From the NCBI RefSeq assembly GCF_026571515.1, contig NW_026859403.1, positions 1-64,000 of the forward strand: DNA of 64,000 nucleotides. Reading direction: 5' to 3'. Positions 2,447-50,600 of the stretch are shown here, in pieces; within the stretch, counting starts at the first letter, position 1; the number at the start of each line of letters is the position of its first letter. Both the position numbers and the translations under genes were made by a program. Origin of the DNA: Ruditapes philippinarum. Taxonomy: Eukaryota. Below the pieces are notes generated by a model, which searched no databases, was not told where the DNA came from, and was given only the letters and a program-made list of their open reading frames with translations.

Positions 2447-3058
2447 AAAATATGATAAACAAGATCAACAAGGAAAGGCGGCGTTCAATAAACGCAACAA
2501 ATACACGATCCAGCAACAAGACAGTGGCAAGGAGTCCAGGAGGACCCAAAACAAAAACAGGACAGGGCACAAGGTAGAGCATGGGCAGGTTAATCTCTAA
2601 AATCATACACAAGAAGAAATAATTAGAGTCAAAGAAAAAAATAAATGATTGAATAATAGGCCCATACGGGCACATATGAAGGGGACAGGAGACCGGGGGA
2701 TAAATTAAAGAAATAAAAACTAGGGGCAAAGGGGAAGATACTTTCCGTAGACGAGAAAACAAAAAGGGACCCAAAAGTGTCACCATAACAGTATGCAATA
2801 ACGAAATAGAAAAAACAGAATCCCTAAAGATCTTCAAGTCCAACACAACAAAATTGAAAATGTTGCAGGCTCGGTATGATTGAGTCTGTTCATGGACGGT
2901 ACTGAAAAGTGCAAGTTACCGTCCATGCCCCCTAGCACCGGCTTAAAAAGACATACATATGTGGAACACAGAGGGGCACCGCCTTTGAACGGTCAGCTGC
3001 ATAAGTACTGCTGGGGAGTTTAAACAGGTTATTGGTTTACCAAACCTCACTCTCAGAC
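2447..3058 (-). mobile_element. Interspersed repeat family X, interrupted by a family Z insertion (2804-2946)
   Basis: Reverse complement matches 8786-9249 (gaggtttgg...ctgaccgttc[c/a]aaggcgg...ctttccttgttgatcttgtttatcat). The 8786 copy lacks the Z segment. Confidence 0.8.
2804..2946 (-). mobile_element. Family Z structured small element nested in X
   Basis: Matches 7206-7350, 10906-11040 and 19623-19699. Confidence 0.8.
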
Positions 3059-3865: not shown

Positions 3866-4076
3866 TTGTTTGTTTCATTTTACGCCTTTTCCCAACAGTA
3901 TTTCAGTCATATAGGCGGGTAGTTTCCTAACCACCGTTCCTGGAGAGTTACACCAGCACTAGACTACCTTGCTTCGTGCTAAACTACCAAAGCATCTCCC
4001 GGGGATCGAACCCACGCCATATAGGTAACTGGGTTTGAAGTCATCGACTATAACCCCTCGACCACGGAGGCGGTCA
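3866..4076 (-). mobile_element. tRNA-derived SINE family B, full length
   Basis: A box TGGTCGAGGGG, B box GGTTCGATCCC and (AAAC)n tail. Flanked by a 12-bp TSD GTAACAYCCGAG (3854-3865 / 4077-4088). Second copy at 12140-12304. Confidence 0.9.
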
Positions 4077-4092
4077 GTAACATCCGAGCCCC

Positions 4093-4292
4093 AAAATATG
4101 ATAAACAAGGAAAGTCGGCGTTCAATGAACGTTGCTATTGCCTTGTTGATCTTATTTTGTTTTTTAGCCATCTCTCCGTGCTCTCCCTGTTTTTGTTTGG
4201 GGTCCTCCTGGTCTCCTTGCCGCTCGTTCTTGTTGCTGGGTCGTGTTGGGGTTGCGTTCAATGAACGCCGCCTTTCCCTGTTGATTTTTTAA
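4093..4292. mobile_element. Family X 3'-end fragments in inverted plus direct arrangement
   Basis: 4093-4131 is the reverse complement of the X 3' end. 4140-4292 contains forward X 3'-end sequence including GCGTTCAATGAACGC. Confidence 0.7.
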
Positions 4293-4600: not shown

Positions 4601-6420
4601 AACTAGAACTATCACTAAATGTGATTAATACCCCCCACAAGACTGCTTCGGAAATGAGGATGTTACTAGTAACAGAATACCTTGTAAAAGAATTGAAATA
4701 TAGAGTTATGGTTGTGGGCAATTAAAGATAGTTGTGGTTCTTGTATATTGCATTTCCTTTCAATGTGGTTGGCCATTGATGAAGTTTTATTGAATTACTC
4801 TGTAATAAGTCCAGAAAGACAAAGAAAAGGAACAAAGGGCAATAACTCTATAAATACTGAAGATGTAGTTATAGTTCTTGTGCACTGCACTTCCTCTTTT
4901 TGTGCTTGACCATTGTATGAAGTTGTTTTGAATTTCAACCAGTATGTTTTAAGTTATGCTCCGGACAAGGAAAAGTATCAAAGGGCAGTAACTCTGTATT
5001 TTGTCAAAATGGAGTTATGGCTCTTATGCACTGCACTTCCTTTTAATGTCCTTGACAACTGTATGAAGTTGTATTGAATTCCAAACAGTAGTTTTCAAGT
5101 TATGCTCTGGACAAGGAAAAGTAACAAAGGGCAATAACTCTGTAATTAGTCAAGATGGAGTTATGGTTCTTGTGCACTGCACTTCCTCTCAATGTGCTTG
5201 ACCATTGTATGAAGTTATATTGAATTCCAACCATTAGTCTTCAAGTTATGCTCCGGAAAAAAAAGCAATGGAAAAGTAACAAAGGGCAGTAACTCTGTAT
5301 TAGTCAAGATGGAGTTATGGTTCTTGTGCACTGCACTTCCTCTCAATGTGCTTGACCATTGTATGAAGTTATAATGAATTCCAACAATTAGTCTTCAAGT
5401 TATACTCCGGACAAAAGAAAGCAATGGAAAAGTAACAAAGGGCAATAACTCTGTAATTACTTTAGATAGAGTTATGGTTCTTATGCACTGCACTCCTCCT
5501 TACTGTGTTTGACAATTGTATGAAGTTGTTTTGAATTCCAACCAGTAATTTTCAAGTTATGCCCCGGACAAGGAAAAGTAACAAAGGGCAATAACTCTGT
5601 AATTAGTCAAGATAGAGTTATGGTTCTTGTGCACTGCACTTCCTCTCAATGTGCTTGACCATTGTATGTAGTTATATTGAATTCCAACCATTAGTCTTCA
5701 AGTTATGGTCCGGACAAAAGAAAGCAATGGAAAAGTAACAAAGGGCAATAACTCTGTAATTACTTTAGATAGAGTTATGGTTCTTGTGCACTGCACTTCC
5801 CCTTATTGTGTTTGACAATTGTATGAAATTGTTTTGAATTCCGACCAGTAGTGTTCAAGTTATGCCCCGGACAAGGAAAAGTAACAAAGGGCAATAACTC
5901 TGTAATTAGTCAAGATAGAGTTATGGTTCTTGTGCACTGCACTTCCTCTCAATGTGCTTGACCATTGTATGTAGTTATATTGAATTCCAACCATTAGTCT
6001 TCAAGTTATGGTCCGGACAAAAGAAAGCAATGGAAAAGTAACAAAGGGCAATAACTCTGTAATTACTTTAGATAGAGTTATGGTTCTTGTGCACTGCACT
6101 TCCCCTTATTGTGTTTGACAATTGTATGAAATTGTTTTGAATTCCAACCAGTAGTGTTCAAGTTATGCCCCGGACAAGGAAAAGTAACAAAGGGCAATAA
6201 CTCTGTAATTAGTCAAGATAGAGTTATGGTTCTTGTGCACTGCACTTCCTCTCAATGTGCTTGACCATTGTATGTAGTTATATTGAATTCCAACCATTAG
6301 TCTTCAAGTTATGGTCCGGACAAGGAAAATGCAACGGACGTCTGGACCGACCGCCCGACCGACCACCGGGTGACTCCTATATACCCCCCCCCCCAAACTT
6401 CGTTTTTGGGGGTATAAAAA
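4601..6420 (-). mobile_element. Non-autonomous Helentron/Helitron2-type element (DINE-1/pearl-like) with internal satellite array
   Basis: One end has a TATACCCCC...GGGGGTATA hairpin followed by an A-run (6378-6420) next to a (GACC)n microsatellite. The other end (AACTAGAACTATCAC...GTGAT..ATACCCCC) matches the terminus at 18020-18058 in reverse complement. Confidence 0.88.
4835..6330. repeat. Tandem array of ~10 units of 146/155-157 bp
   Basis: AAGGGC(A/G)ATAACTC-type anchors at 4835, 4981, 5127, 5282, 5438, 5584, 5741, 5887, 6044 and 6190. Confidence 0.95.
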
Positions 6421-6852: not shown

Positions 6853-6990
6853 GCCGGTGCTAGGGGGCGTGAGGGATGTTGCACTTATACAGTATCCCTC
6901 ATGTACAGACTCAATCAAACCGAGTCTGCAATTCTTATGTAATTTTGTTGTGATTAATGCTTCCGAGGGATCACTTTGTTTCCAGATTTT
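6853..6990 (+). mobile_element. Family Y, 5'-truncated copy
   Basis: Stems TGAGGGAT/ATCCCTCA (6870-6877/6894-6901) and CAGACTC/GAGTCTG (6906-6912/6922-6928). Confidence 0.85.
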
Positions 6991-7205
6991 TTTTTTGCTC
7001 TAATTCCTCATGAACTAAAGCTGTACAGTATTTTGAAAATGTAAAACACAAGAGTGACCAATGCGATCATTCGAATAGATAAAACTTGTGTTTATTGTCT
7101 GGATTACTTGACCATTACAATGATAATATATTTTACAGTAAAAATTAGCATGGGTCTTCAAATTTAAAGAAATATAGTTATAAATTTTAACTGACTTGAT
7201 AATAA

Positions 7206-7350
7206 TAAAATAGAGATAAACAGAATCCCTAAAGAAAGCCCAACACGGCAAAATTGAAAATGTTGCAGGCTCGGTTTGATTGAGCCTGTTCATGGACGGT
7301 ACTGGAAAGTGCAAGGTACCGTCCACGCCCCCTAGCACCGGCTTAAGCAG
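7206..7350 (-). mobile_element. Family Z copy
   Basis: Stems CAGGCTC/GAGCCTG (7266-7272/7282-7288) and TGGACGGTAC/GTACCGTCCA (7293-7302/7316-7325). Confidence 0.85.
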
Positions 7351-7503
7351 AATTCAACATTAAACATGCACTTGAATTTTGAATTTTGAAACATCCGCAG
7401 ATGTGTTCATATGACGGTTATCATGGAACCTTCAATGTGACACGTAAGTGCCATTCCATGAAAAGCGGCATATAAGACCACTTTTACCAGAGCCCCAATT
7501 TAC

Positions 7504-8391
7504 AGGGATTCTGTATTTATCTATTTTATAGCTCTTTGTCCTGTCCTGTTTTTGTTTGGGGTCCGCCTGGGCTCCTTGCCATTGGTTCTTGTTGCTGGGT
7601 CATATGGGGGTTGCGTTGATTGAACGCCGCCTTTCCTTGTTATCATATTTTGTGCTCACAACCGTGTTGTTTGTGTTGTGTGGCGGCTGTAAAAAGTCTC
7701 CCCGTACATGCAATCAATGTTGTTATATTTTCATCCTCAAGGGATTGTTCGGCGTCCAGTGTCGGTGTCCCCCTCCATGTCCAGCCTTCATAGACTAATG
7801 GTTTATACCCACATTTTCCTACAAATTATTTATCATTTAATGATTTACCTGTCCGTGCTCTTTGTCCTGTCCTGTTTTTGTTTGGGGTCCGTATGGGCTC
7901 CTTGCCATTGGTTCTTGTTGCTGGGTCATATGGGGGTTGCGTTCATTGAACGCCGGCTTTCCTTGTTGATCTTGTTTATCATATTTTATAGTGTTGGGCT
8001 TTCTTTAGGGATTCTTATTTTCTCTATTTTATCCCTCATGTACAGACTCAATCAAACCGAGTCTGCAATTCTCTTGTAATTTTGTTGTGATTAATGCTTC
8101 CGAGGGATCACTTTGTTTCCAGATTTTTATACTTCACAACAGCAGGTGTCAAGTGCTGTGTGGCAGCTGTAAAAAGTTGCCCCGTTCTTCACTTCAGTGT
8201 TATATTTTTCTGGTCCTTAGGGATTATTGATTCCAGCACTGAGTACCGCTCAAGCCGGTGCTAGGGGGCGTGAGGGATGTTGCCCGTAATTATTATCCCT
8301 CATGTACAGTTTCAATCAAACCGAGTCTGCAATTCTCTTGTAATTTTGTTGTGATTAATGCTTCCGAGGGATCACTCTGTTTCCAGATTTT
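7504..8391 (+). mobile_element. Head-to-tail stack of X, Y and Z fragments
   Basis: Order: Z tail 7504-7529, X 7531-7650, Y 5' part ~7655-7750, X ~7808-7989, Z tail 7991-8030, Y 8030-8129, Y 8158-8391. All are in the same orientation. Confidence 0.8.
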
Positions 8392-8785
8392 TGATAATGT
8401 ATGTTTATATATTACCATGCTCTTCTCAAATACTGTAACCGCCGTCATATTGTTAAAGGCGACGAACATGTAATGTTAAGAATTGAAATTGAATTGTCAG
8501 CTTACCAATAAATTAAAATAAAATATATTTGTACATTTTCTTAATTGTATGGGCGGAAGGGTGGGATGTACATGAATATCTACATGTAAATACTGCCAAA
8601 AATACTTGTGTCGAGTGAAAAAGAGCGGGCAAACAGGTCTATAAATATCAGATATTCACGAAAATAACGTGAAATTCATGAGCAAAACTAAAACATCTTA
8701 AGGTGGACAGACTTAAGCAGTTATTATATCAGAAACGAGAATAATTTAATTTTATTTACACTGTCTCGTTTATAGGAACATGGTG

Positions 8786-9249
8786 GGGCTAAGAGCGAGG
8801 TTTGGTGCACCATTAACCGGTTTAAACACCCCAGCAGTCATTATTATGCTGCTGACCGTTCCAAGGCGGCGCCCCTCTGTGTTCCTCAGATGTATGTCTA
8901 TGTTGTTTCATACTGTTTTGGTGACACTTTTGCTTGTGTCCCTTGTTGTTTTCTCGTCTACGTTAAGTATCTTCTCCATTACCCCTAGTTTTTATTTCTT
9001 TGATTAACCCCCCCCCCCTTTCCCCTTTGACTTTGTGGGCCTATAATTCAATCATTTATTTGTTTTCTTTGAATTCCTAATCAGTTATAAATTATTTATC
9101 ATTTAGTGATTAACCTGTCCGTGCTCTGTCCTGTTTTTGTTTTGGGTCCGCCTGGGCTCCTTGCCACTGATTCTTTGTTGCTAGGTCATATGGGGGTTGC
9201 GTTCATTGAACGCCGCCTTTCCTTGTTGATCTTGTTTATCAGATTTTAT
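8786..9249 (+). mobile_element. Family X, longest uninterrupted copy
   Basis: Matches 2447-3058 in reverse complement. 3' hairpin GCGTTCA-T-TGAACGC and terminal ...tttatcagatttta. Confidence 0.8.
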
Positions 9250-10586
9250 GTGTCCGGTCCATGGCATCACTGCATGCCAACATCAACTATCAATCAACTG
9301 AATGACTTAAGGCCTCATAGTCGATTGTTGTTTGTTTGGTTTTACGGCACACCGACAACAATTCTGGTGAATAACGTTTTCATAATGAAGCTAAATGTAT
9401 GTTCATGAGGTATGAGACAGTATAAATCTATGCCGTGAAACAATGAAAAATGTACACTTGTGTTATTTTGTCGATGATATCACAATGAATGATTCAATGA
9501 GGAATGGGAAAGCATATCATAATGTAAACATTTTGTATAGCAATTTAATATACACTTTATTAATCATGGCATACAAATTAACAAATAATCCATTTTTGCC
9601 ATATCTTAATCCATTGGACTTGAGAATAATATTTTTTGTATAACAATAAATCAAAATAAATTTAATAAACAATAATATCCGTATCCATTCATATTAGTTT
9701 TACATCCAAAATAACATAAACAGAGTGTTTAACTTTTAAATTATTACTTCTTACTTATTGTTGATTTTGGCCTGTCAGGATATAATGAAATATATAGCCA
9801 AGTGGAATGGTTTGACGGCATACCAACACGGTTCTAGTTTTCAAAATGAAGCTTATATATGTCCATGAATAAAATGATGACGTGAAACAAGCGAAAACGT
9901 ACGCTTCCATTTCAAATTAGATTCCAACAATAAATTTATCTGGACAATTCTTTTTAAAAAGTATGAAATTGTATGTGTTATTTTGTCAATGATATCACAA
10001 TGTATGATTTTCCGGCAGATGCTTTCCCAAACAACAATTGTACTTGCATTATATTTTTTGATTGATTCATTGCAATATATGATTGTTTGTTATTTGTTTG
10101 TTTGTTCTGTTTGACACATAACTGGCCATACCGCGCCAAACACTATTATTGTTAACATAAGAAAATTAAATGGATTGAGATAGAGTAAAAGGCTTTTCAG
10201 TGTTAGTTACACGCTACCTTACGATTGACCTGAGGCCATTTTTAGTCTATCACATTTTCAAAATTTTCTTAACACATTTTCTCAAACGAAATCAAGTGTT
10301 TGAGGTCTAAATACAGCATTTTTTGCTATTTGAGGCCTCAAAAGGGGGATGAATAGGCGTTAAAAGACGTTCATATGAAGAAACAAGTTACTTACTAATT
10401 TAAATTATCTTTAAAATATGCATGTATGTTTGCCATACATTTGTTGATCCTTCTACTTTCTATCATTGTCAAGTACGAGCTACACTAACATTGTCAAAAG
10501 AGCATACGTCATAATGCAATTTGAAACAATGAATAATGTCTTGTACAAATTAGGCTTAAGGCAGTGCAAGGGAGTCATAGTTGTGT

Positions 10587-10860
10587 GTTTTTTGTGTTTT
10601 TGGTTTTACGTCACATCGACACATTATAAGTCATATCGCGATGTTCCAGCTTTACTGGTTAAGGAAGACCTCAGGTGTCACTCCGTGCATTATTTCAGGC
10701 CCGAACGGGCACCTGAGTAGAACAACCGACGTTCCGTAAGCTAGCTTGATAGCTTCCTCACAGGACAGAATCCAAAGTCCCTGTCGGGATTCGAACCCAT
10801 AGCAGTGAGGGACAAGTGGTTTGAAGTCAACGACCTTAACCACGCGGCCACGGACGCCCC
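10587..10860 (-). mobile_element. tRNA(Ser)-derived SINE family A, full length (body reminiscent of molluscan V-SINE-type elements; family assignment tentative)
   Basis: Head GTGGCCGCGTGGTTAAGG (A box) and GGTTCGAATCC (B box), with an AC-rich tail. 10-bp TSD ATAGTTGTGT at 10577-10586 and 10861-10870. Confidence 0.92.
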
Positions 10861-10905
10861 ATAGTTGTGTTTAGGTAACAATCGATCGATAAGGTCGATG
10901 TGCTT

Positions 10906-11040
10906 AAAAAAAGAGAAATAAAGAATCTCTTAGGAACGCACAAAACGACTAAATTGTAAATGTTGCAGGCTCGGTTTGATGGAGCTTGTCGGAAAGTGCA
11001 AGTTACTGTCAACGCCCCTTAACACCGGTTTAAGCAGTTT
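10906..11040 (-). mobile_element. Family Z, diverged copy
   Basis: aatgttgcaggctcggtttgat...gtgcaagttactgtcaacgcccct..caccggtttaagcag. Confidence 0.7.
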
Positions 11041-11337
11041 TCAAAATTTAGATATTAAGGAAGTATTATTATGCGTCCGGTCCATGGAATCACTGCATGC
11101 TAACATCAAATATAAATCAACTGAATGACATGATTGTGTTTGTTCGGTTGGTTTTACGGCACACCAACAAACAGTTCTAGTGAATCACGTTTCAAAATAA
11201 AGCTTTATGTATGTTCATGAGGTATAAGACAGCGATCTCTGCAATGTTCATTTAATTTTGTAGTGATAAATACTTCCGAAGGACCACATTTTGTCCAGAA
11301 CAGTTTCCGTATAATTGCGTTTTATGAAAATTGCTTG

Positions 11338-12125
11338 TTTTTTGATGCCACCGCAGCATCTGCGATGCGGTGGCATATAGCGATTCACCTGTGTGTTTGT
11401 GTGCGTGTTTGTTTGTGTTATATAGATTATATAGTGAACTTAAATTTTCTTGTAAAAAACCACTAGTTCAATTTCAACCAAACTTGGCAGGATTGATCCT
11501 TGGGTGAAGGGCTTCCAAAGTTGTTCAAAGAATTTCATTCCATGCAGAAAATCTGGTTGCCATGGCAACGAAAAGGAATTATAAAATAAATTTAAAAAAT
11601 CTTCTTGTAAAGACCCAATAGGCCTAGAGCTTAGATATTTTGCATAAGGCACTGTCTAGTAGACCTCTACCAAGATTGTTCAAATTATAGCCCTGGGTTC
11701 AAAATCAGCCCCGCCCCGGCAGTCATTGATTTTCACTATATGTACATATAGTAAAAACTTAAAATACCTTCTTGTGAAGACCCAAAAGGCCTAGAGCTTA
11801 GATATTTTGTATAAAGCATTGTCTGGTAAACCCTTACCATGATTGTTCAAATTATAGCCCTGGGGTCAAAATCGGCCCCGCCCCGGGGGTCATTGATTTT
11901 CACTATATGTACATATAGTATAAACTTAAAATACCTTCTTGTAAAGACCCAAAAGGCCTAGAGCTTAGATATTTTGTATAAGGCATTGTCTGGTAACCCT
12001 CTACCCAGATTGTTCAAATTATAGCCCTTGGGTCAAAATCGGCCCCGCCCCGGGGGTCATTGGGTTTCCTTATATGTATATAGTAAAAACTTATAGTAAA
12101 AACTTTAAAAAAATATTTCTTCTAG
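11338..12125 (+). mobile_element. Non-autonomous Helentron-type element with 167-bp tandem units, 3'-truncated
   Basis: T-run followed by hairpin ATGCCACCGCA/TGCGGTGGCAT and a (GTGY/GTTT) microsatellite. Units start at 11601, 11768 and 11935 (period 167). Confidence 0.85.
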
Positions 12126-12304: not shown

Positions 12305-12320
12305 TTATCTCCCCATTTTC

Positions 12321-12458
12321 TACTCAGGTGCCCGTTCGTGCCTGAAATAATGCACGGAAGGGCACCTGAGGTCTTCCTCCACCAGTAAAGCTGGAACGTC
12401 GCGATATGACCTATACTGTGTCGATGTGACATAAAACCCATAACAAAACAAACAAAAA
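12321..12458 (+). mobile_element. SINE family A, 5'-truncated
   Basis: Matches the 3' half of 10587-10860. 14-bp TSD ATCTCCCCATTTTC at 12307-12320 and 12459-12472. Confidence 0.92.
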
Positions 12459-14047
12459 ATCTCCCCATTTTCATATGAAGTACATTAAAATGAATGCTTA
12501 TTTAAATGATATAATGACACAAATTGGTTGGATAATTTGAGGTAATGCATATTATTTATCTCATATATTCGTCTATTTTGCACTCAGTTCTTTAAGACAA
12601 AGACCTGCCACTGCGAATATTTCTGATACTCAAGATCCACCTTGGATCAATGAAATACAATTTTGAATCACAGCAATATTGCATTTCTTTTTTGATTCGT
12701 CAGTTTGTTTTGTTCACCAATCGCTAGGAATAAAAACAGCTTGACGACAAATAACTTATAACGGTATAGCTGTTTTTTTATTTCGCGATTAATTTTATTT
12801 TAAGTATCATTATTGATATTTAACATAAATGAATTTCGAAAATATAAATACCATATACATGTTATATTATCAAATAAACGAACCTTTGTCAGCGCACATA
12901 ATGCAAAAGAATTGTCTTAATCTGATATTATAGAGATAACTATGTTTGGTTCTAGAATGTAATATAACAGAAAATGTATTCAAAGACAAATCCCATTTTA
13001 GCATCTCAGTGAACAAAATGTAGAACTGAAATTCAGACAAATTTCTTTGCAATTAAGGGCCATAAAATTAATCATTTTATATGTTGTGATTTCAATCTCC
13101 ATTCTCTTTGAAATAGGTTATATCGGAGTAAGTTAATTTTAGAAAATGAAAATTTAATAGTTCATTGTTTGTACAAGTGTCTACTTAATAGAAACATATG
13201 TGATAATCTTACAGATGCTTTTTAGAAAATTTGAATTGATTTATATACTGTTAGATATAATTGCATCAATATCAAACGAAATATAATGAGATATATGAGT
13301 AAGATAATACAGTATGGAAAACGTATTTCTAGAGATATGGCAGCCATGTTCTTTTTATTACTCAACTGTTCATTAAGACCCGGTTTAAATAAGTTCCGTT
13401 ACTGACATGAGTAAAACGGTAGCAAGTTATAACGCTTTTTATTATACCCCTGCCATAAAATGTGGAAGGGGGGGGGGTATAATGGATTCGTTTTGTCGCG
13501 TCGGTCCGTCCGTCTCCATTATCGTGTCCGCTTTATAAATCCTATACCAATTGAAGGATTTTCTTCAAACTTGGCCCAAATATTCACCTAAACACGGGAA
13601 TGTACAGAACCCCTGTTGCCTGTGTGTCAGCTCAAGGTCAATGTCACAATTGAAAGTCAAATATCAAACAATCAAATATTAGACAGTATGTTGTGTCCGC
13701 TCTGTAAGTCCTACACTATTTGAAAGATTTTCTTCAATCTTTGCTCAAATGTTCACCTCAACAAGGATATGTGCAGAAGGCTTAAGGTCAAGGTCACACT
13801 AAAAAGTCAGAAATTGACTTAGAAAATATTCTTAAATTTTAACATGTATTTAAATATTTCTGAAACTAGAAAAGGTATTTGCTTGAGACTTAAAATATAT
13901 ATGCAGTGACACAGTTAAGATATGCAGGTCAAGTTTCATAACTCTGTATTTCATTTTGACAAAGTTATGCCCCTTTTTAACTCTTCACATTTACATACAA
14001 TCAATTACTAGACATTAATGTCGTGTCCGCTCTATAAATCCTATACT

Positions 14048-27368: not shown

Positions 27369-30351
27369 TATAAATTATTGACTATCTATAATCTACTTTG
27401 TCTATGATTTAAATTAAGCAATAGTGAAAAAAAGGAATTCTTAATGAAAACAACACTTGTATGTTAACCTTAAACCGAAAACGAAACATTAAGGTGTGTA
27501 GGTTGTGTTGTGAACAAAGAGTAATGATACCACAAAAATGTACATTTATAATAGGAAAATTCATAAAACAAACATGAATAATTAAAAATATATAACATTC
27601 AGTATTAAATCTTTATGTACACGTTCATAACTCGATATAACTTAACGCAATGAAGTTATTCGCCATCTGCTAATATCACAGTAGTCATGTTATAGACACT
27701 TACTAGGAACACCTTAAAACATGATACTCTCAGGCTATCGTTCATGTCAAAAGAATCAAAACCACTAAACATTTCAAAAAGTTGTGATTCTGGTGAAAGG
27801 GTACAAAACATTTCGAATTGTTGTATGATGTATATCTGATACTCAGAAGAAAACAAGGTGTAACACAATATATTCAGTGGGTAATTCACATTTATTACAC
27901 GTTACTTCATAGCTTCTTGAGAAAAATTTAGAAAGAAGTCTGAATGCATAGACACATTGAAATTTGCGACTGAATCTCCATAACATACAAGGTTCATACT
28001 TTGTGTGCAAGCGGGAGAAACTAGATAGACTGGCATCGCATAATAGTCTATTGCGCCATTCAAATTCAACAGTTTTGTGAATGGCTGATTTGATCGTGCA
28101 ATAATTGCTTCAATTGTTTTCAATTTTCGATACAGATACTCACTGTATATTAGTCTGTTCAAATAAAATCCCTGGGGTCCAAATTGACCTCGCCCGGGGG
28201 GTCATTGTTTTCCCCTATATGTGTGTAGTAAAAACTTTCTTGTAAAAACCCCAAAGAACTAGAGCGTAGATATTTATTATGAAACATTTTCTAATGGGTG
28301 TCTACCAAGTTTGTTCAAATAAAAGCCCCTGGGTTAAAATTGGCCCCGCCCCGGGGGCTTATATCCAGGAGAGCGATCTCAGGGCCATCATGGCCCTCTT
28401 GTTTTCTTTGTATGCGTAGCAGGGATTGCTTTTTTTTAGAGGCGTTTCATTATTTTCTGTAAATGCAGCCTTTTTTCTGAGACTTGTCTCTCTCAAGAAC
28501 GCTTTGTATACAATTGTAACAACCCGCAGTTCTCGCTTTTTTAAAATAGTATATGACTGTGTTTGTATACTGTTTTATTTTCAATTAGTCACAAGTAGTC
28601 ACTCTTTTCATATGAAGAGTATTTATCAACAATCATGCCATTAATTCTATATACATGTACATAAATGTTAGCCGGGTCGATAGTCGGTAAAGGCTAGATG
28701 TACAGTAAATGCTCACATGAAGATGGTGTCACATTTTGTTTTGAAACTGCATTGTATTACAACGTAATTCTTAGACCAGTCTCTCTAATGTACGCTTCTT
28801 ACACAATTATAACAACCCGCAGTTAACAGGAAACAATTAGCTGAAATCTTGTGAATATTTCATTTCACTGCAGACAGTTCTGAACTGACGCATAATCAAG
28901 TTAATGAATGCATACTTATTATAATGACTTTTTTTGTTTTACGTATTTCGTATTTCCACATCAGTATTTACGGTTTATTCACATTTTGATGTATGATTTA
29001 TATAAATTTCATATCGATAATTGTGAAATTTGATATCAAGAATGAGGAAACATTTATGACGTTTTTATTTACCATAAACCATTTTAATGAGGTAAAATGT
29101 TAAACGAATATCATTACTATTTTTCGTACGAAATAAATGCTTATTGCGTGCTTGGTAAAATCATATGAAACATAATTTATAATACTAGATGCACTTTAGG
29201 ATAGTATTTTTCATTAAAACAGAAGCCTGATGCATTCGTTCTAAAACAAACATGTACAATATTGGGCAATAATGATGGAAAAGTGTGTATGTTTTTGTAT
29301 TATTGCGGATGAAGTCATACTGACATGTTAGAGATCATATGGGAACTTCCACCTTTATAGTTATTAAATCCAGTGATTGCACATGTAAGTTTTGGCTTCA
29401 GGGAATAAAGGTGTTGATATGTTCTCACAACATAATTTCCTTGTTACGACAAGTTTTGTATTTCACACCTTCAGTTGATAAATTGCTGTAAATACCCGAT
29501 AATTACCAAACAATCGATGTTTTTTGATGCAATATTAACCAAACAATAACAAACAAATAGCAAAAGAATACAAATGGTAAGCATTTATAGTCTAAATACA
29601 TGTACATTGTTCAATAAAATGCCCCGAATGAAATTACCGCTGCCGTAAAATACCGACTACACCTGTGATTAGTGACAGATACATTTGTATTGCTTTTTCA
29701 CGGCAAATGTGCCCACCCAAACAAGTCAGAAAGTTGCTGCTACTTCGCTTTTAACGCACTTCGGATAAAACGAACGATATTCAAATGTCCCATTAAGTGA
29801 AGGCAGAGGTAAAATCCAAATCATTTAGGTAATTTAAAGTTACAATAAGTTCAATTTTGAGGAAAGACGATGAATAATTTTGGGGAAAAAAAAGCTTTAT
29901 GATATTTAAATGATTGCCAAAAACACATTAAGTAATTAGCCTTAACCGAAACGCAATTATCAAGGCGATTAAAGTGTGTTTAAGCTGGGCCAGCTGTTGT
30001 TGTTTTATATATGAATAAGGGCACTTACGCAAACTTATATATGAATAAGGACACTTACGCAAACTATAAATTATTGACTATCTATAATCTACTTTGTCTA
30101 TGATTTAAATTAAGCAATAGTGAAAAAAAGGAATTCTTAATGAAAACAACACTTGTATGTTAACCTTAAACCGAAAACGAAACATTAAGGTGTGAAGGTT
30201 GTGTTGTGAACAAAGAGTAATGATACCACAAAAATGTACATTTATAATAGGAAAATTCATAAAACAAACATGAATAATTAAAAATATATAACATTCAGTA
30301 TTAAATCTTTATGTACACGTTCATAACTCGATATAACTTAACGCAATGAAG

Positions 30352-30909
30352 TTATTCGCCATCTGCTAATATCACAGTAGTCATGTTATAGACACTTACT
30401 AGGAACACCTTAAAACATGATACTCTCAGGCTATCGTTCATGTCAAAAGAATCAAAACCACTAAACATTTCAAAAAGTTGTGATTCTGGTGAAAGGGTAC
30501 AAAACATTTCGAATTGTTGTATGATGTATATCTGATACTCAGAAGAAAACAAGGTGTAACACAATATATTCAGTGGGTAATTCACATTTATTACACGTTA
30601 CTTCATAGCTTCTTGAGAAAAATTTAGAAAGAAGTCTGAATGCATAGACACATTGAAATTTGCGACTGAATCTCCATAACATACAAGGTTCATACTTTGT
30701 GTGCAAACGGGAGAAACTAGATAGACTGGCATCGCATAATAGTCTATTGCGCCATTCAAATTCAACAGTTTTGTGAATGGCTGATTTGATCGTGCAATAA
30801 TTGCTTCAATTGTTTTCAATTTTCGATACAGATACTCACTGTATATTCCTGTAGTGACTGTCAATATTGTAATTATTATACATTCAAAACTGAAATCCAT
30901 TAGGGGCAT
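30352..30909 (-). pseudogene. Possible decayed secreted-protein gene (two ORFs in one frame split by a single TAA)
   Basis: ATG at 30909 with a hydrophobic N-terminus (CIIITILTVTTG). ORF 30352-30585 continues in the same frame 12 nt after the stop. Loose resemblance to PAN/C-type-lectin-like molluscan proteins (LNILCYTLF). Confidence 0.25.
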
Positions 30910-31793
30910 ATTTTACTTTATCGCAATTCAACAGACTGTAGACGACCGTGGTTTTACTTGTTGTGAAAACACAAATTTTGTGTGTCTTGCCATGCCTGTC
31001 AAGCAATTACACAAGAGGCCAGAGTTGGTCTATATCGCTTACCTAAAAAATTGAAAAAGGAAATAAAAAGATCACGAAAATGCAGAAACATTTCACCTTA
31101 TAACTATTATTTACAAAACATTTGTAGTGGACTTCTCTACATAATATCCATAGCTATTTGTATGCACCTAATAACATTGAAATTCATTTTGTAAGTGTTG
31201 AAAGTGAAAACATGTTCACAGAACTTGAAAAGTGTAACAAAGCTTTTGTTGTAATGTAGTGAGTCCTTAGACTAGGATTAAAAACAAAATATATGTAAAT
31301 AGAAAAAAATCAGCTTCAATTATTTAAACAATTATGTGCCGTGGTTAGTAAAATGTCTGATATAAATTAAATCTTTACAAAAACATAGTTGTAAAGGGTA
31401 CCGTTGAAGGTCGATAAACACAGCATAATAAGTTTTTAAATATCTTCAATTTAAGAAATGCAAGTTAAGTGGATGATAAGTATGAACTTTACATTTGTAC
31501 CTATGTAATTTTAAAGAAGCAAAATAACAATTGTATTCCCTGTGCAATAATATTAGGGGGTGGGGGCGGGGGGCATAGTGCACTTACGATGCCGTCCAAA
31601 ACGCGTAAAAAACAGTTTTCTGGTCTAAAATAATATATTTGTATAATCATTTTTGGTAGTAGTTTATATCAAAACATGTTAAACAGCGTAAAACCCTCAA
31701 AGGGATCATTATTCATAACAGAATTTCTGAAATGCAAATTGAGCATTCTTGATGTCTACTATAAACGAGGAAAACGATATCATTTCTCGGTGC

Positions 31794-31868
31794 AATCATG
31801 TAAGCCTCAATTACAGGTAATCATGTGAGCGTTAGTTACAGGTAATCCTGTAAGCGTCAATTACAGGT
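31794..31868. repeat. 25-bp minisatellite x3
   Basis: aatcatgtaagcctcaattacaggt-type unit at 31794, 31819 and 31844. Confidence 0.9.
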
Positions 31869-32002
31869 CACTTCAGTCATAGTAAGTGGATAATCATGCA
31901 ACAACAGGACAACAGTTTGAGTTATTAAAAAATTTAAAATGAAGCGTTAATATCAAAAACGGGAAATCTAAGATTGCGCCTAGTTATGTGATTTACTACA
32001 TG

Positions 32003-33061
32003 TTTTTAGCTCACCTGTCACAAAGTGACATGGTGTGCTTTTGTGATTGCTTTTCGTCCGGCGTCCGTCCGTCGTCCGTCCGTAAACTTTTACTTTAAAC
32101 GACATCTCCACAAAAACCGCGAAACCAATTTAATCCAAATTTCACAGGAATGTTTCTTGTGTAGTTAACTTTAAAAATGTTCAAAGAATTTAATTCCATG
32201 CAGAACCCTGGTTGCCATGGCAACCGAAAGAAAAAAACTAAAAATATCTTCTTTTAAAAAACTGAAAGAGCTAGAGCTAAGATATTTGGCATGAAACATC
32301 ATCTAGTCCGTGTCTTACAATTTTGTTCAAATAAAAGCCCTGGGGTCAAAATTGGCCCCGCGCCGGGGGTCATTGATTTTCCTTTTTTGTATATAGTAAA
32401 AACTTAAAAAATCTTCTTTTAAAAAACCAAAATAGCTAGAGCTTTGATATATAGCATGAAACATCTTCTAGTGTGTGTCAACCAAGTTTGTTTAAATAAA
32501 AGTCTTTGGATCAAAATTGGCCCTGCCCCAAGCGTCATTGTTTTTCCCTTGATGTATATAGTAAACACTTAAAAAATCTTCTTTTATCCTAAGAGCTAGA
32601 GCTAAGATATTTAGGATGAAATTAGATTCTAATAATTGTCTAACAAATTTGTTCAAATAACGGCCCTGGGGTTTAATTGGCTACGCCCCGGGGTCATTGA
32701 TTTTCCTTATATGTGTATAGTAAAAACTTAAATAATTTTCTTTAAAAAAACTCCAAAGAGCTAGAGTTAAGATACTTAGCATGAAATATCTTCTAGTGAG
32801 TGTCTACCAAGTCTGTTCAAATAAAATCCCTGGGGTCCAAATTGACCTCGCCCGGGGGGTCATTGTTTTCCCCTATATGTGTGTAGTAAAAACTTTCTTG
32901 TAAAAACCCCAAAGAACTAGAGCGTAGATATTTATTATGAAACATTTTCTAATGGGTGTCTACCAAGTTTGTTCAAATAAAAGCCCCTGGGTTAAAATTG
33001 GCCCCGCCCCGGGGGCTTATATCCAGGAGAGCGATCTCAGGGCCATCATGGCCCTCTTGTT
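32003..33061 (+). mobile_element. Complete non-autonomous Helentron-type element with ~160-166 bp tandem units
   Basis: 5' TTTTTAGCTCACCTG plus hairpin and (GTCC)n, ~5 units, and 3' CAGGAGAGCG...AGGGCCATCATGGCCCT-CTTGTT. Units resemble those at 11601-12100. Its last ~250 bp are duplicated at 28152-28403. Confidence 0.92.
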
Positions 33062-34953
33062 TTCTTTGTATGCGTAGCAGGGATTGCTTTTTTTTAGAGG
33101 CGTTTCATTATTTTCTGTAAATGCAGCCTTTTTCTGAGACTTGTCTCTCTCAAGAACGCTTTGTATACAATTGTAACAACCCGCAGTTCTCGCTTTTTTA
33201 AAATAGTATATGACTGTGTTTGTATACTGTTTTATTTTCAATTAGTCACAAGTAGTCACTCTTTTCATATGAAGAGTATTTATCAACAATCATGCCATTA
33301 ATTCTATATACATGTACATAAATGTTAGCCGGGTCGATAGTCGGTAAAGGCTAGATGTACAGTAAATGCTCACATGAAGATGGTGTCACATTTTGTTTTG
33401 AAACTGCATTGTATTACAACGTAATTCTTAGACCAGTCTCTCTAATGTACGCTTCTTACACAATTATAACAACCCGCAGTTAACAGGAAACAATTAGCTG
33501 AAATCTTGTGAATATTTCATTTCACTGCAGACAGTTCTGAACTGACGCATAATCAAGTTAATGAATGCATACTTATTATAATGACTTTTTTGTTTTACGT
33601 ATTTCGTATTTCCACATCAGTATTTACGGTTTATTCACATTTTGATGTATGATTTATATAAATTTCATATCGATAATTGTGAAATTTGATATCAAGAATG
33701 AGGAAACATTTATGACGTTTTTATTTACCATAAACCATTTTAATGAGGTAAAATGTTAAACGAATATCATTACTATTTTTCGTACGAAATAAATGCTTAT
33801 TGCGTGCTTGGTAAAATCATATGAAACATAATTTATAATACTAGATGCACTTTAGGATAGTATTTTTCATTAAAACAGAAGCCTGATGCATTCGTTCTAA
33901 AACAAACATGTACAATATTGGGCAATAATGATGGAAAAGTGTGTATGTTTTTGTATTATTGCGGATGAAGTCATACTGACATGTTAGAGATCATATGGGA
34001 ACTTCCACCTTTATAGTTATTAAATCCAGTGATTGCACATGTAAGTTTTGGCTTCAGGGAATAAAGGTGTTGATATGTTCTCACAACATAATTTCCTTGT
34101 TACGACAAGTTTGTATTTCACACCTTCAGTTGATAAATTGCTGTAAATACCCGATAATTACCAAACAATCGATGTTTTTTGATGCAATATTAACCAAACA
34201 ATAACAAACAAATAGCAAAAGAATACAAATGGTAAGCATTTATAGTCTAAATACATGTACATTGTTCAATAAAATGCCCCGAATGAAATTACCGCTGCCG
34301 TAAAATACCGACTACACCTGTGATTAGTGACAGATACATTTGTATTGCTTTTTCACGGCAAATGTGCCCACCCAAACAAGTCAGAAAGTTGCTGCTACTT
34401 CGCTTTTAACGAACTTCGGATAAAACGAACGATATTCAAATGTCCCATTGAGTGTCGACTGTATTTAAAAATCGGGATTCAAATGCGTTTTTTCTTGAAT
34501 TTTCAACATTGCATAAGGCAGTTAGAAATGTTTCAATGATTTTACATGTCTTGAATAAAAGCAAAAACGACTGAAATATTTTCAATTAATATTGTGTTTT
34601 CATTTCTCTTCTCCATGATGCTAATATATCAATGTTATTTGGCAAAAGAAGAAAGTATTAAAAACTTTTTGTTATACACTCATCGCGTGGGTGCTGTCCC
34701 ATTATTTTAGGATAAATATAATATTTAAATTAGATTTAGACCCGAAAACTTAAATTGCCAAGTTAGTAAATCAGTGCTTGCATCGAATATATCAAACACG
34801 TTTCAGGCGGAGGTAGTCATCAATGTTAGACCATGAACTGATGGATTCTAAGAAATCTAAGCATATGTTAACGTAAACGCTCATGTATAGTACTTTTCAC
34901 ATTCCCTGACGTTCAATAACGTCCGATGATGGCTTGATAATTTTCATTTCCAG

Positions 34954-47404: not shown

Positions 47405-47600
47405 ATCATAACAGCAAGCATGTGATGGCGTGTGTCGGCCGTAAAAAGTTGCTCCGTACTTTGTCTCACTGTTGTTGTATTTCTTTGATATTTTCTGATC
47501 ATTGATACTTATATATTTAGTGTTAAGAGTTGAAAACCGCTTAAGTCGGAGATAGGGGTGTGAGGGGTGTGACAGGTATTGCACATTAGAACAGACTCAA
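47405..47600 (+). mobile_element. Diverged family Y copy
   Basis: ggccgtaaaaagttgctccgtactt...gatcattgat...gcttaagtcggagataggggtgtgagggg...acagactcaa. A reversed Y 3' end also lies at ~48152-48205. Confidence 0.55.
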
Positions 47601-50600
47601 AGAAATAAAATATAATATTGTCACCTGTATTTTCAGTAACTGTTGATTGACGTATAAATATCATTCGCGTACAAACAAATAGACAGGTCAAGATTAGGTT
47701 TTTGGCAAATATCGACCACAAATTGTCTTCCTGTCTTAGTCAATTGACATATGAGAACCATTCTGTTTATTGCTGATAATTATATGAACACATGCTCTAA
47801 ATTAAGCATGACATATTAAATTTTACCGTCTATATACATTGTAATTGAGAAGTAGATTATAAACATCGATTTTTTATCGATAAAGTCAGAGCAATACCAT
47901 AGGTCGACGTACTCTGTGAAGAGGTTATTTAACGAACTATGTTATTTAACACGAAAACATGATCCTCAATGATCAATTTTCCAGTAACCCCTTTATTCAT
48001 CGGCTAATATGTCGATATTGATTTGCTCTCAACACTTTGTCCAATGAACTGCACTGTTTACTAAGCTCGGAAAATGGCCATTGGCAAACGTGTATCTGAT
48101 TGGAAGTCGTTTTGACATTGGGTAAATATTTTTTGCCAGGAATATAGTATAAATATCTGGAAAAAAGCGACCCCTCGGAAGCATTAAAAAAAGCAAAATT
48201 GCATATTATAAAAAATATTTTATCTATGCAATTCACTAAAGCAGAAAAATTCACAATTTTGAATGGTAGTAATAAAAATATATGCGGTTTAAGCTAATTA
48301 TTTCATGATTATATCATTTATGATGCAAAGGATATACAACATTATCAACTATTTGGTACATGCATTTTTGTTCTATTTATATTCAACAGATTTGTTTCGT
48401 AATATGCATTACAGATTTTATTATTTTGTCATAAACATGAAGCAGCATTCCATCAGATTTAACACTTTCAGTGGCGGTTATAACCTCATCATAGTTACGA
48501 TGTAATTCAATACAAATTAACGCAGATGAAACAATAGAGTTTCTGATATTCCTCAAACTTATAGACTTTCTAAAATGCATTTCATTAGAAATAAAGACTT
48601 TTTCAAATAATATTGTTTTCCATGAGAACATGTTAAAATACATTAATTGGGCTTCTGGTCCAGTTCATTATTGCATATATAAGTCTCCTGCGATTTATAT
48701 CTGATAGGGAAACGTGTGTTCTTTTGTCTTCAGAAACGCCTGCGGGTGCCTTTTGTTTACGTTGTTTGTAATATCTTATAAAACAGATAATACTAGGTTG
48801 TTGGTAATGATTTTTACATTATCATTTCAGTAACAGATATGTCAGGCAACAATATTTGTGTTTGTATTGATGAAAATTAATATATACTCTAAGTTGATAA
48901 GGTAATGTCATATTAAATTGTTTAAACTCAGGAAATTTTTGTACAACACAAATCATTTGGCAAATTGTTGTGTTATTTTCCCAGTCAAGATACCTGGCAA
49001 TATTTGCAGACCTGCCATTTGCTTTATTTATTTTACAAATGAAATATACATGCTATTTTAATTATTGTTTGTGAATATGTATTTATATCAAATCCTGAGT
49101 CAAACATTTATGATTATTTATATATAATTATTTTTATTTTGCCCAACATTTAGCGAGTGAGAATTCAGAAACATAAGGAAACAAACATAATGAAATATAG
49201 TACATGTAAACAGTCAAAACAAAGAAATATTGTAAAAAAGCAAAACAAATGATATCATTTTAATGTGCATATATTATTGACTGGTGTAGAGCAAGATTTT
49301 TTCTTTGACACAGCATATGAGGAAGATAACATGATGTACAGCTTTGAGCATAAGAAGAAAATTCATTACAATATAAAATATTTCTATTCGTATATGAAAG
49401 GGTAATACAAAGTGTAAAATTAAGAAAAAATTCCGCACTATTTACAAAATCTTTATTTGAATGATTGTATTCAAAAATATACAAACGGGACGAAATAATT
49501 CGTTTATAATCAATTATATCAATTAATTATGCCTTTGATTTTATAACTTTCTGTTCGTAATAAAACTGGTCATCCCTGGTATAACAGTTGTAAAAATAAA
49601 TTTGTTTTTTAACATCGGATGAAAAAACACTCGAGCTTTTTGTCGACATTTTATATTATGAAAGCCGTGGAATAATTTGAATAACATCATTTAAATTAAT
49701 GAGCAATGATGAATATTTATGAATACAGAAGATATTGTTCAGTAGTAAAGTAATCAACATTTCTCCTCTTAAATAATTGCAATATTTCATCTTCCGGAAA
49801 GCAAGTAGTGTGTATGATAATTCAAATTGCAATAATAAAGGCAGCAGATTTGTTTCAATAGCACTTGTAATGTATTCTGATGTTTTTGCCTTTTATCTGC
49901 TCGGTATAAAATCTCAAATTTAAAAGGAATACTTCGGGGGAAGATAAAGCTCAGGGACATTTTCATTACAATAGTTTTATTAAGTCATTAAATTAAAATG
50001 GCAAATTGCTAGGAATAATTATGGTTTGGAGAATATAAATAAGTTCCGAAAAATCAACGATTAAAAGTATCACTTAAGATAGCATAATTTATTTCATATA
50101 CGTACATGCCTTTCGCTGTTGCCCTTTTGTGAAAAAAAATTCGTTCAAAATGGCTTTACATTCGCGAAATTTTGTTCTGACATTTTACTGAGAATGACAA
50201 TAAACGTGTTATCGGAATAAAAAATGCTTCAGTGTCTTTGCACAATCATTGTGCTATAATGACTATTATTTACCAAGATGCAATAAATGAAACGAAATGC
50301 TGCATAAATGAGTTTATTATTGGCATAAAGCCGTGATATATGATGAATCACCTTTCACCCATGGAATGTTTTACACAATTTTGACTGAATTTCATATAAT
50401 TAGTCAATTTAGTATTTCTAGATAATCAAATATGAACCAAGGTCGATGGTAAAAATTGTATGCGTTAATATATTTCTATCCGCCTGAGAAAAAACAAGCT
50501 TATCCTTAATCTGCATGTATGTGTAGTAAACGTATTATTAAAACTATCGCGAATACACACTTACTTTAAAATAAAATCACGTATAAATCTTCTTTTACGT

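Follow-up and report, generated by a model that had tools for sequence, protein, structure and literature searches.

A 64,000-nt stretch of the Ruditapes philippinarum genome (contig NW_026859403.1, positions 1 to 64,000; hereafter the window) contains two small repeats, Y and Z, that carry the same pair of hairpins with different stem sequences, and the locus raises the question of what this module is and what it does for its carriers. Rereading the letters confirmed the two-hairpin pattern that the initial annotation had reported in Y (6853-6931, plus strand) and in Z (7342 down to 7263, minus strand). In Y, a conserved strand starts with GCCGG at 6853 and is followed by stem 1 (6870-6878/6893-6901) with loop 1, TTGCAC (6879-6884), a TGWA linker, stem 2 (6906-6912/6922-6928) with the loop AATCAAACC, and CAA (6929-6931). 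Stem 2 reads CAGACTC/GAGTCTG in Y and CAGGCTC/GAGCCTG in Z. The linker is TGTA in Y only and TGAA in the other families described below. The two hairpins form the middle part of a larger predicted fold of ~100 nt, in which a third helix, P0, encloses the module by pairing the strand that precedes TTGA with the one that begins at CAA. Both stems of the fold as first drawn were retained; this closing helix had been overlooked. The Y copy at 6853 is 5' truncated at GCCGG and lacks TYAA.

Two alternative pairings had been proposed for GGTGC. The upstream partner CCAGCAC is present in Y only and varies even within Y. The candidate GGTGC/GCACY pseudoknot is compatible with the sequences, which show a one-sided G-C/G-U change only, but it has no two-sided covariation. 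Compared with shuffled sequences, the module folded with z-scores of -3.4 in Y and -2.7 in Z for the sense strand; for the antisense strand, the values were -4.5 and -3.7, respectively. Since both strands fold well, energy alone cannot choose the strand on which the module acts.

A model built from the module (R1) found eight copies in the window at an E value of <0.001. The truncated Y module at 6853-6931 (+), supported by sequence, fold, and R1, ends in the P0 3' strand and continues through a Y 3' region (6932-6991, +) that holds strand D of a junction helix described below and stops at the fixed unit end, the putative start of reverse transcription. The Z module at 7258-7369 (-) is complete, with both P0 strands, and scored 124 bits with R1, a model whose training set included this copy; it lies in a 5'-truncated Z piece (7207-7473, -; unit nt 360 to 630) that stops at the fixed 3' end. 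A partial tandem of Y at 8029-8392 (+) consists of unit nt 184 to 283 followed by nt 2 to 283 with a deletion and has its module at 8227-8337. An older Y copy occupies 1365-1588 (+; module, 1419-1529), a Z 3' piece fused to a piece of the Naiad motif X introduced below occupies 2804-3056 (-; module, 2858-2970), a decayed Z copy with a stem 1 deletion lies at 10897-11058 (-), and an old, diverged Y-like copy (about 73%) lies at 47406-47629 (+). The mixed form of stem 2 that had been read in two of these copies holds at 1499-1521, where a G-U pair is formed, but not at 2866-2888, where the minus strand has an A-C mismatch and a mutated loop. Genome-wide (1.41 Gb), the loop 2 pattern gave 24,697 matches, and its reversed control gave none. 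The window also holds a tRNA-derived SINE-like repeat at 10581-10850 (-), with an inverted partner at 12318-12459, that is by eye unrelated to the module, and tandem repeats of 146/157 nt and about 165 nt with a 4.66-kb near-identical duplication (4696-6350, 11580-12113, and 28152-34409).

The initial annotation treated Y and Z as two different elements. This was wrong: they are 70% alike over about 240 nt, the greater part of the Y unit, which makes them sister families, Z having a long extra middle. Both are head-to-tail tandem repeats, with units of 283 nt (Y) and 630 to 640 nt (Z). When metagenomes were scanned for the pattern, 27 of the 41 loci recovered belonged to a third family, W; the other 14 were unrelated and were dropped. 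Family W is a roughly 280-nt tandem family in AT-rich DNA that we infer to be animal host DNA; its stem 1 is TTGACAGT/ACTGTCAA, and its stem 2 is CAGTCTG/CAGACTG. A fourth family, V, is represented by a partly deleted copy in a 35%-GC stretch, probably host carry-over, of a contig titled Candidatus Thiodiazotropha. Among three matches in GTDB contigs, this family V copy was one and the other two were due to chance, and viral contigs gave no matches. At locus L199, an animal-type repeat sits within a bacterial symbiont MAG contig, a probable case of host contamination.

The full named structure, tentative central helices included, was 93.5% paired over 25 copies, versus 39 to 49% when the pairing was slid. 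In these copies, pairs with two-sided changes numbered five in P0, six in stem 1, two in stem 2, and one in a tentative helix, and RNAalifold recovered the same three helices (P0, stem 1, and stem 2). Between families, every two-sided change remained paired (8/8 for Y-Z, 9/9 for Y-W, and 6/6 for Z-W), and columns outside the helices were more often invariant than those within them (46/55 versus 23/48). The 29-nt central strand showed no clear two-sided change among the compared copies. Helix covariation in these alignments is strong, yet at the family level it is drawn from the three intact families Y, Z, and W, and three lineages do not amount to a phylogenetic test. The proposal that selection acts on the fold is supported, since the stems of W, a family from another organism, differ in sequence yet are paired. 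We conclude that the module is a real, conserved RNA domain. Among the papers listed by literature searches, none describes the module or a non-autonomous Naiad. The module motifs were also not found in the supplement of Craig et al. (PMC8557442), in which line breaks may conceal matches.

An Rfam scan, which had been suggested as a check of novelty, gave no matches at gathering thresholds over the window, so that no known family was assigned. At relaxed E values, the only matches were one to SECIS, which falls in the 3' untranslated region (UTR) of the Naiad element discussed next and led us to reject a SECIS identity for the module, and others at chance level. The impression that the module fits no hammerhead, HDV-like, twister, or pistol consensus was borne out by descriptors, which gave no matches in Y, Z, or W; those for pistol and HDV-like ribozymes covered the core motifs and the nested pseudoknot. 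Specifically, no type I hammerhead core was present in these three families, and the twister P4 with its 8-nt L4, T1/T2, and the U-A site had no match on either strand. The lack of a P4/L4 match sets the module apart from type P5 twisters (PMC5408937).

Reverse transcriptase (RT) fragments are coinserted at several Y/Z loci. The element to which they belong is 4,249 nt long and has CxC, DKA, and RT besides an N-terminal GIY-YIG; it also shows in-frame TGAs that are conserved and a hairpin resembling SECIS. The SECIS_1 match in its 3' UTR scored 33 bits, under the cutoff of 35, with an E value of 0.002. Pfam returned no families for this partner, so its assignment to Naiad, a clade of Penelope-like elements (PLEs), rests on motifs and on its likeness, judged by eye, to Naiad_Mmer in the supplement of Craig et al. 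(PMC8557442). The partner has all of the motifs listed above in common with the clam selenoprotein Naiads of that paper, Naiad_Mmer and Naiad_Scon. Loci L091 to L100 carry a young, abundant Naiad with up to five or six TGAs in the open reading frame, one of which is Ser in a subfamily. A first look gave at least 3,482 candidates for the Naiad RT piece, and the module occurred within 10 of 30 Naiad RT loci versus 2 of 60 background windows from seven large contigs. Nucleotides 1 to 87 of the unit are 87 to 92% (Z) and 78% (Y) identical to the Naiad 5' end. In the window, a Naiad junction at 7533-7806 (+) runs from the 3' end into about 150 nt of the 5' end and has a hairpin (block A) and a strand B in common with Y and Z; a Naiad 3' end is fused to a Z 3' end at 7820-8030 (+), and a piece of the Naiad 3' UTR, 89% identical to L091, lies at 8746-9246 (+).

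After deduplication, the 3' end coincided with the unit end (within 8 nt for Y and Z) in 68/91 cases for Y, 82/130 for Z, and 57/95 for Naiad, and the 5' end coincided with the unit start in only 4/88, 2/125, and 2/95, respectively. Bounded insertions were longer than one unit in 35/67 cases for Y and 14/76 for Z; the loci were picked by anchored searches, so none of these counts describes a random sample. Units within indel-free arrays were near-identical (0/319, 2/352, and 2/482 differences), even where the array differed from the reference by 3 to 5%; indel-bearing arrays gave uninformative lag counts. This array pattern suggests that reverse transcription begins at a single fixed site and passes over the unit junction without a pause. 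As expected of non-autonomous Naiad or PLE dependants, Y and Z have 3' ends that are fixed and show 5' truncation, inversions, and partial tandems; they resemble the clam Naiads in the last three of these and in the 5' block (PMC8557442). They differ in being noncoding and in carrying a module for which Naiad has no counterpart. A Helentron/HINE identity, which calls for subterminal inverted repeats with two fixed ends, was rejected because the 5' ends are ragged. At L026:1604-3083 and at L025, Z unit variants alternate A-B-A, as if a dimer template had been copied repeatedly.

A 12-pair helix spans the unit junction, with the unit end (strand D) pairing with about nt 80 to 95 of the next unit (strand B). 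Pairing was 12/12 in Y, Z, and V, 10 to 11/12 in W, and 9/12 in Naiad (with a one-column offset), and over the alignment, from which the junctionless row Y016 was omitted, 103 of 108 cells were paired, versus 41 to 71 when the helix was slid. Because the helix spans the junction, the fixed end lies inside a conserved rod. Internal initiation of reverse transcription has been reported for the lizard PLE PAc, with a protein-binding motif hypothesized in the same stretch (PMC11167929). Among 12 Z pieces that start at loop 1, 10 are fused precisely to the 3' end of Naiad, while 1 continues from a diverged Naiad-like end and 1 from a Z end; such Z-Naiad chimeras are the outcome expected if the Naiad RT switched templates. 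Taken together, Y, Z, W, and V are very probably noncoding, head-to-tail, non-autonomous Penelope-like retroelements, and the sequences suggest that they are likely copied by the Naiad Penelope-like RT. At L308:399-1698, five 244-nt units consist only of Naiad nt 4160 to 4249 and 1 to 153, so tandems can form without either the module or motif X. The L308 units always reenter at nt 153, possibly at a second fixed RNA end or through repeated template jumps. In L091, the Naiad unit junction lies between GTAAGT and polypyrimidine-CAG signals (at unit nt 3965 and 211, respectively), and an intron there would take the RT start out of the mRNA.

We looked for traces of cleavage in reads and in 5' ends. 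Runs X21 and X22 are labeled RNA-seq yet are full of GATC-GATC ligation joints and were treated as Hi-C-like DNA. Two unstranded, shallow RNA runs, X23 and X24 (1,297 and 2,757 reads), had no read-end pileups and few junction reads, and 84 to 85% of their reads ran into unlike sequence. The 5' truncations were scattered over the unit with no dominant stop. A junction hotspot at loop 1 (TTGCAC) was seen in Z (22 versus 5 and 5) and weakly in Y (6 versus 3), and it joins almost solely Naiad, whose start has TGC in common with loop 1. Microhomology accounts for this hotspot, and we rejected a reading of cleavage from the 5' ends.

The Naiad partner carries a motif of its own, X, which lies about 370 to 460 nt before the 3' end of the element. 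The window copy (8783-8877, +) has point changes and resembles type P5 twisters by descriptor, with a predicted cut at 8833/8834; the match was scored on the L091 copy. The descriptor (P1, P2, P4/L4, T1, and T2 in P5 order), written after X had been seen, gave one match in X and none in 200 shuffles. By this descriptor, X would share P4/L4, T1, T2, P2, and the U-A site with the type P5 twisters of PMC5408937, and it differs in having CC/GG at T2 instead of the usual GC. X also occurs at L053:2782-2876 and in the published Naiad_Scon and Naiad_Mmer consensi (PMC8557442), where by eye the flanking stems are changed yet paired; decayed forms in two loci from hosts of W were missed by the descriptor. 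Rfam did not detect X even at relaxed E values, which shows that the sensitivity of that scan is limited. X may already be cataloged in a twister survey that includes bivalves (PMC11662667). By eye, Naiad_CGi, Sglo, Olur, Tgra, and Pmar in the supplement of PMC8557442 have in common another conserved motif in the 3' UTR, whose palindromic stem varies and which is a further candidate ribozyme, as well as a hairpin at the 5' end that recalls block A.

The reading that we tentatively favor as a whole, at somewhat under an even chance, is a family of elements copied by Naiad and equipped with a self-processing module. Under this explanation, read-through transcription of tandem copies would give RNA spanning the unit junction. 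The Naiad protein would bind the junction-spanning hairpin and rod, as the shared structure, the ends, and the chimeras suggest, and cDNA synthesis would begin on nicked, AT-rich DNA, at the unit end and so at an internal position of the RNA. A start at that position requires a template that crosses the junction, either a multimer or a circle. The module, which lies 60 to 150 nt upstream of the fixed unit end in all families, would do the job that hammerheads do in retrozymes and that the twister-like X would do in Naiad, the least secure of these steps, and self-processing would yield unit-length linear or circular templates. That the module and X both lie upstream of the same start, and that each retrozyme unit has one hammerhead, favors this role; the analysis leaves it a real possibility, short of probable, that the module is a self-processing RNA that cuts the element's own tandem transcripts to unit length. 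Against this role, no cleavage site was seen in the reads or the 5' ends, tandems can form from the Naiad junction only, and hammerhead cleavage in PAc was dispensable for insertion in vitro (PMC11167929).

Other functions were weighed against the same observations. The module might instead be a noncatalytic scaffold for a host protein, putatively stabilizing the RNA, exporting it, or tethering it to ribosomes and so capturing the Naiad RT in trans within the same pairing of element and partner, much as SRP9/14 serves Alu. Loops that stay invariant while their stems covary would suit such a scaffold, as would the lack of a catalytic core and the absence of the module from Naiad, which would have cis preference; the 24,697 loop 2 matches also exceed the at least 3,482 Naiad RT candidates, although these are different measures. 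The UUGCAC loop resembles the U1A/SNF binding heptamer, but its first base is not the A of that heptamer, loop 1 can form internal pairs (59-70 and 60-69) that would hide it, and the TGTA linker found in Y is TGAA elsewhere. We regard the scaffold as possible but doubtful. An RT recognition signal, as suggested earlier, or an enhancer to which the Naiad protein binds would fit the position of the module, 60 to 150 nt from the fixed end in all families. However, the module was not found in three Naiad loci with R1 or by BLAST, the structure that Naiad does have in common with Y and Z is the junction rod, and Naiad arrays of junction sequence only exist. A module that Naiad lacks is unlikely to be its RT signal, and we consider this function quite improbable.

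A remodeled tRNA-like head, serving as a polymerase III promoter or an RNase P/Z cut signal, would assign P0 to the acceptor stem, stem 1 to the anticodon arm, TGWA to the variable loop, and stem 2 to the T arm. The helix connectivity is indeed cloverleaf-like, with stem 2 directly on P0 and a 4-nt linker between the hairpins, and loop 2 resembles the B-box consensus, features reminiscent of tRNA-derived SINE heads. Unlike those heads, the module is internal in a tandem unit, has T runs downstream (3 runs of at least four T's in Y and 13 in Z), and has no detectable tRNA homology: ARAGORN found no tRNA genes in six loci, cmscan gave no tRNA match for the module at an E value of ≤10, and in 11 of 12 tests, alignments to the host tRNAs Arg, Lys, Thr, and Cys did not outscore shuffles, the exception having an uncorrected P value of 0.01. 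Where a T loop has its C, W and V mostly carry A, and no 5'-end pileup marks the head. This origin is therefore rather unlikely. Finally, the stems could be functionless, kept paired through template switching or DNA hairpin repair, with the loops reflecting common descent. The good folding of both strands would agree with this, as would the kinship of Y and Z, which makes their counts not independent, but unpaired columns are more conserved than stems (46/55 versus 23/48), and the long-range helices P0 and D-B covary as well, the latter being rich in G-U pairs on the sense strand. We give a functionless origin very little credence, and the self-processing module remains the reading that we carry forward.

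The closest known systems are the non-long-terminal-repeat retrozymes (Cervera and de la Pena 2020, PMC7229834; Li et al., bioRxiv 10.64898/2026.07.22.740005), which like Y and Z are short, AT-rich, head-to-tail units that are highly self-paired, present in thousands of copies, and dependent on PLEs as non-autonomous elements. The Y and W units fall within the retrozyme range of about 150 to 450 nt, and Z is longer. Each retrozyme unit carries a type I hammerhead, whereas Y, Z, and W have none, and the partner of Y and Z is a Naiad, a clade reported by Craig et al. (PMC8557442) to be without canonical hammerheads. Retrozymes also give abundant circular RNA; for Y and Z, the two unstranded RNA runs gave few junction reads. 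Non-autonomous Naiad partners have been described for Chlamys (MRC1) (PMC8557442). As far as its sequence allows us to judge, the element is a new hammerhead-less, retrozyme-like dependant of Naiad that carries an undescribed predicted fold. A bolder statement, that clam Naiads are parasitized by retrozyme-like circular RNAs that lack hammerheads and are driven by a self-cleaving ribozyme of a new class, with Naiad itself using an unrecognized twister, is conceivable, but we would not yet expect it to be right.

Craig et al. leave open how Naiads spread without hammerheads (PMC8557442). The present analysis offers three testable handles on this question: a conserved junction structure that, in Naiad and its dependants alike, places the proposed start of reverse transcription internally in the RNA; a twister-like motif in the 3' UTRs of clam Naiads; and an unclassified, covarying domain of ~100 nt that is similarly placed in the dependants. 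Searches at sites where a known ribozyme has been replaced have already uncovered new ribozyme classes (PMC6765202, PMC10085705). If the ribozyme reading is true, Naiads "lacking ribozymes" would have ribozymes of other kinds, and it would be worth searching Naiad 3' UTRs and the elements that depend on Naiads for new catalytic RNAs. Should the domain not cleave, it would still mark how a noncoding passenger captures the reverse transcriptase of a Penelope-like element.
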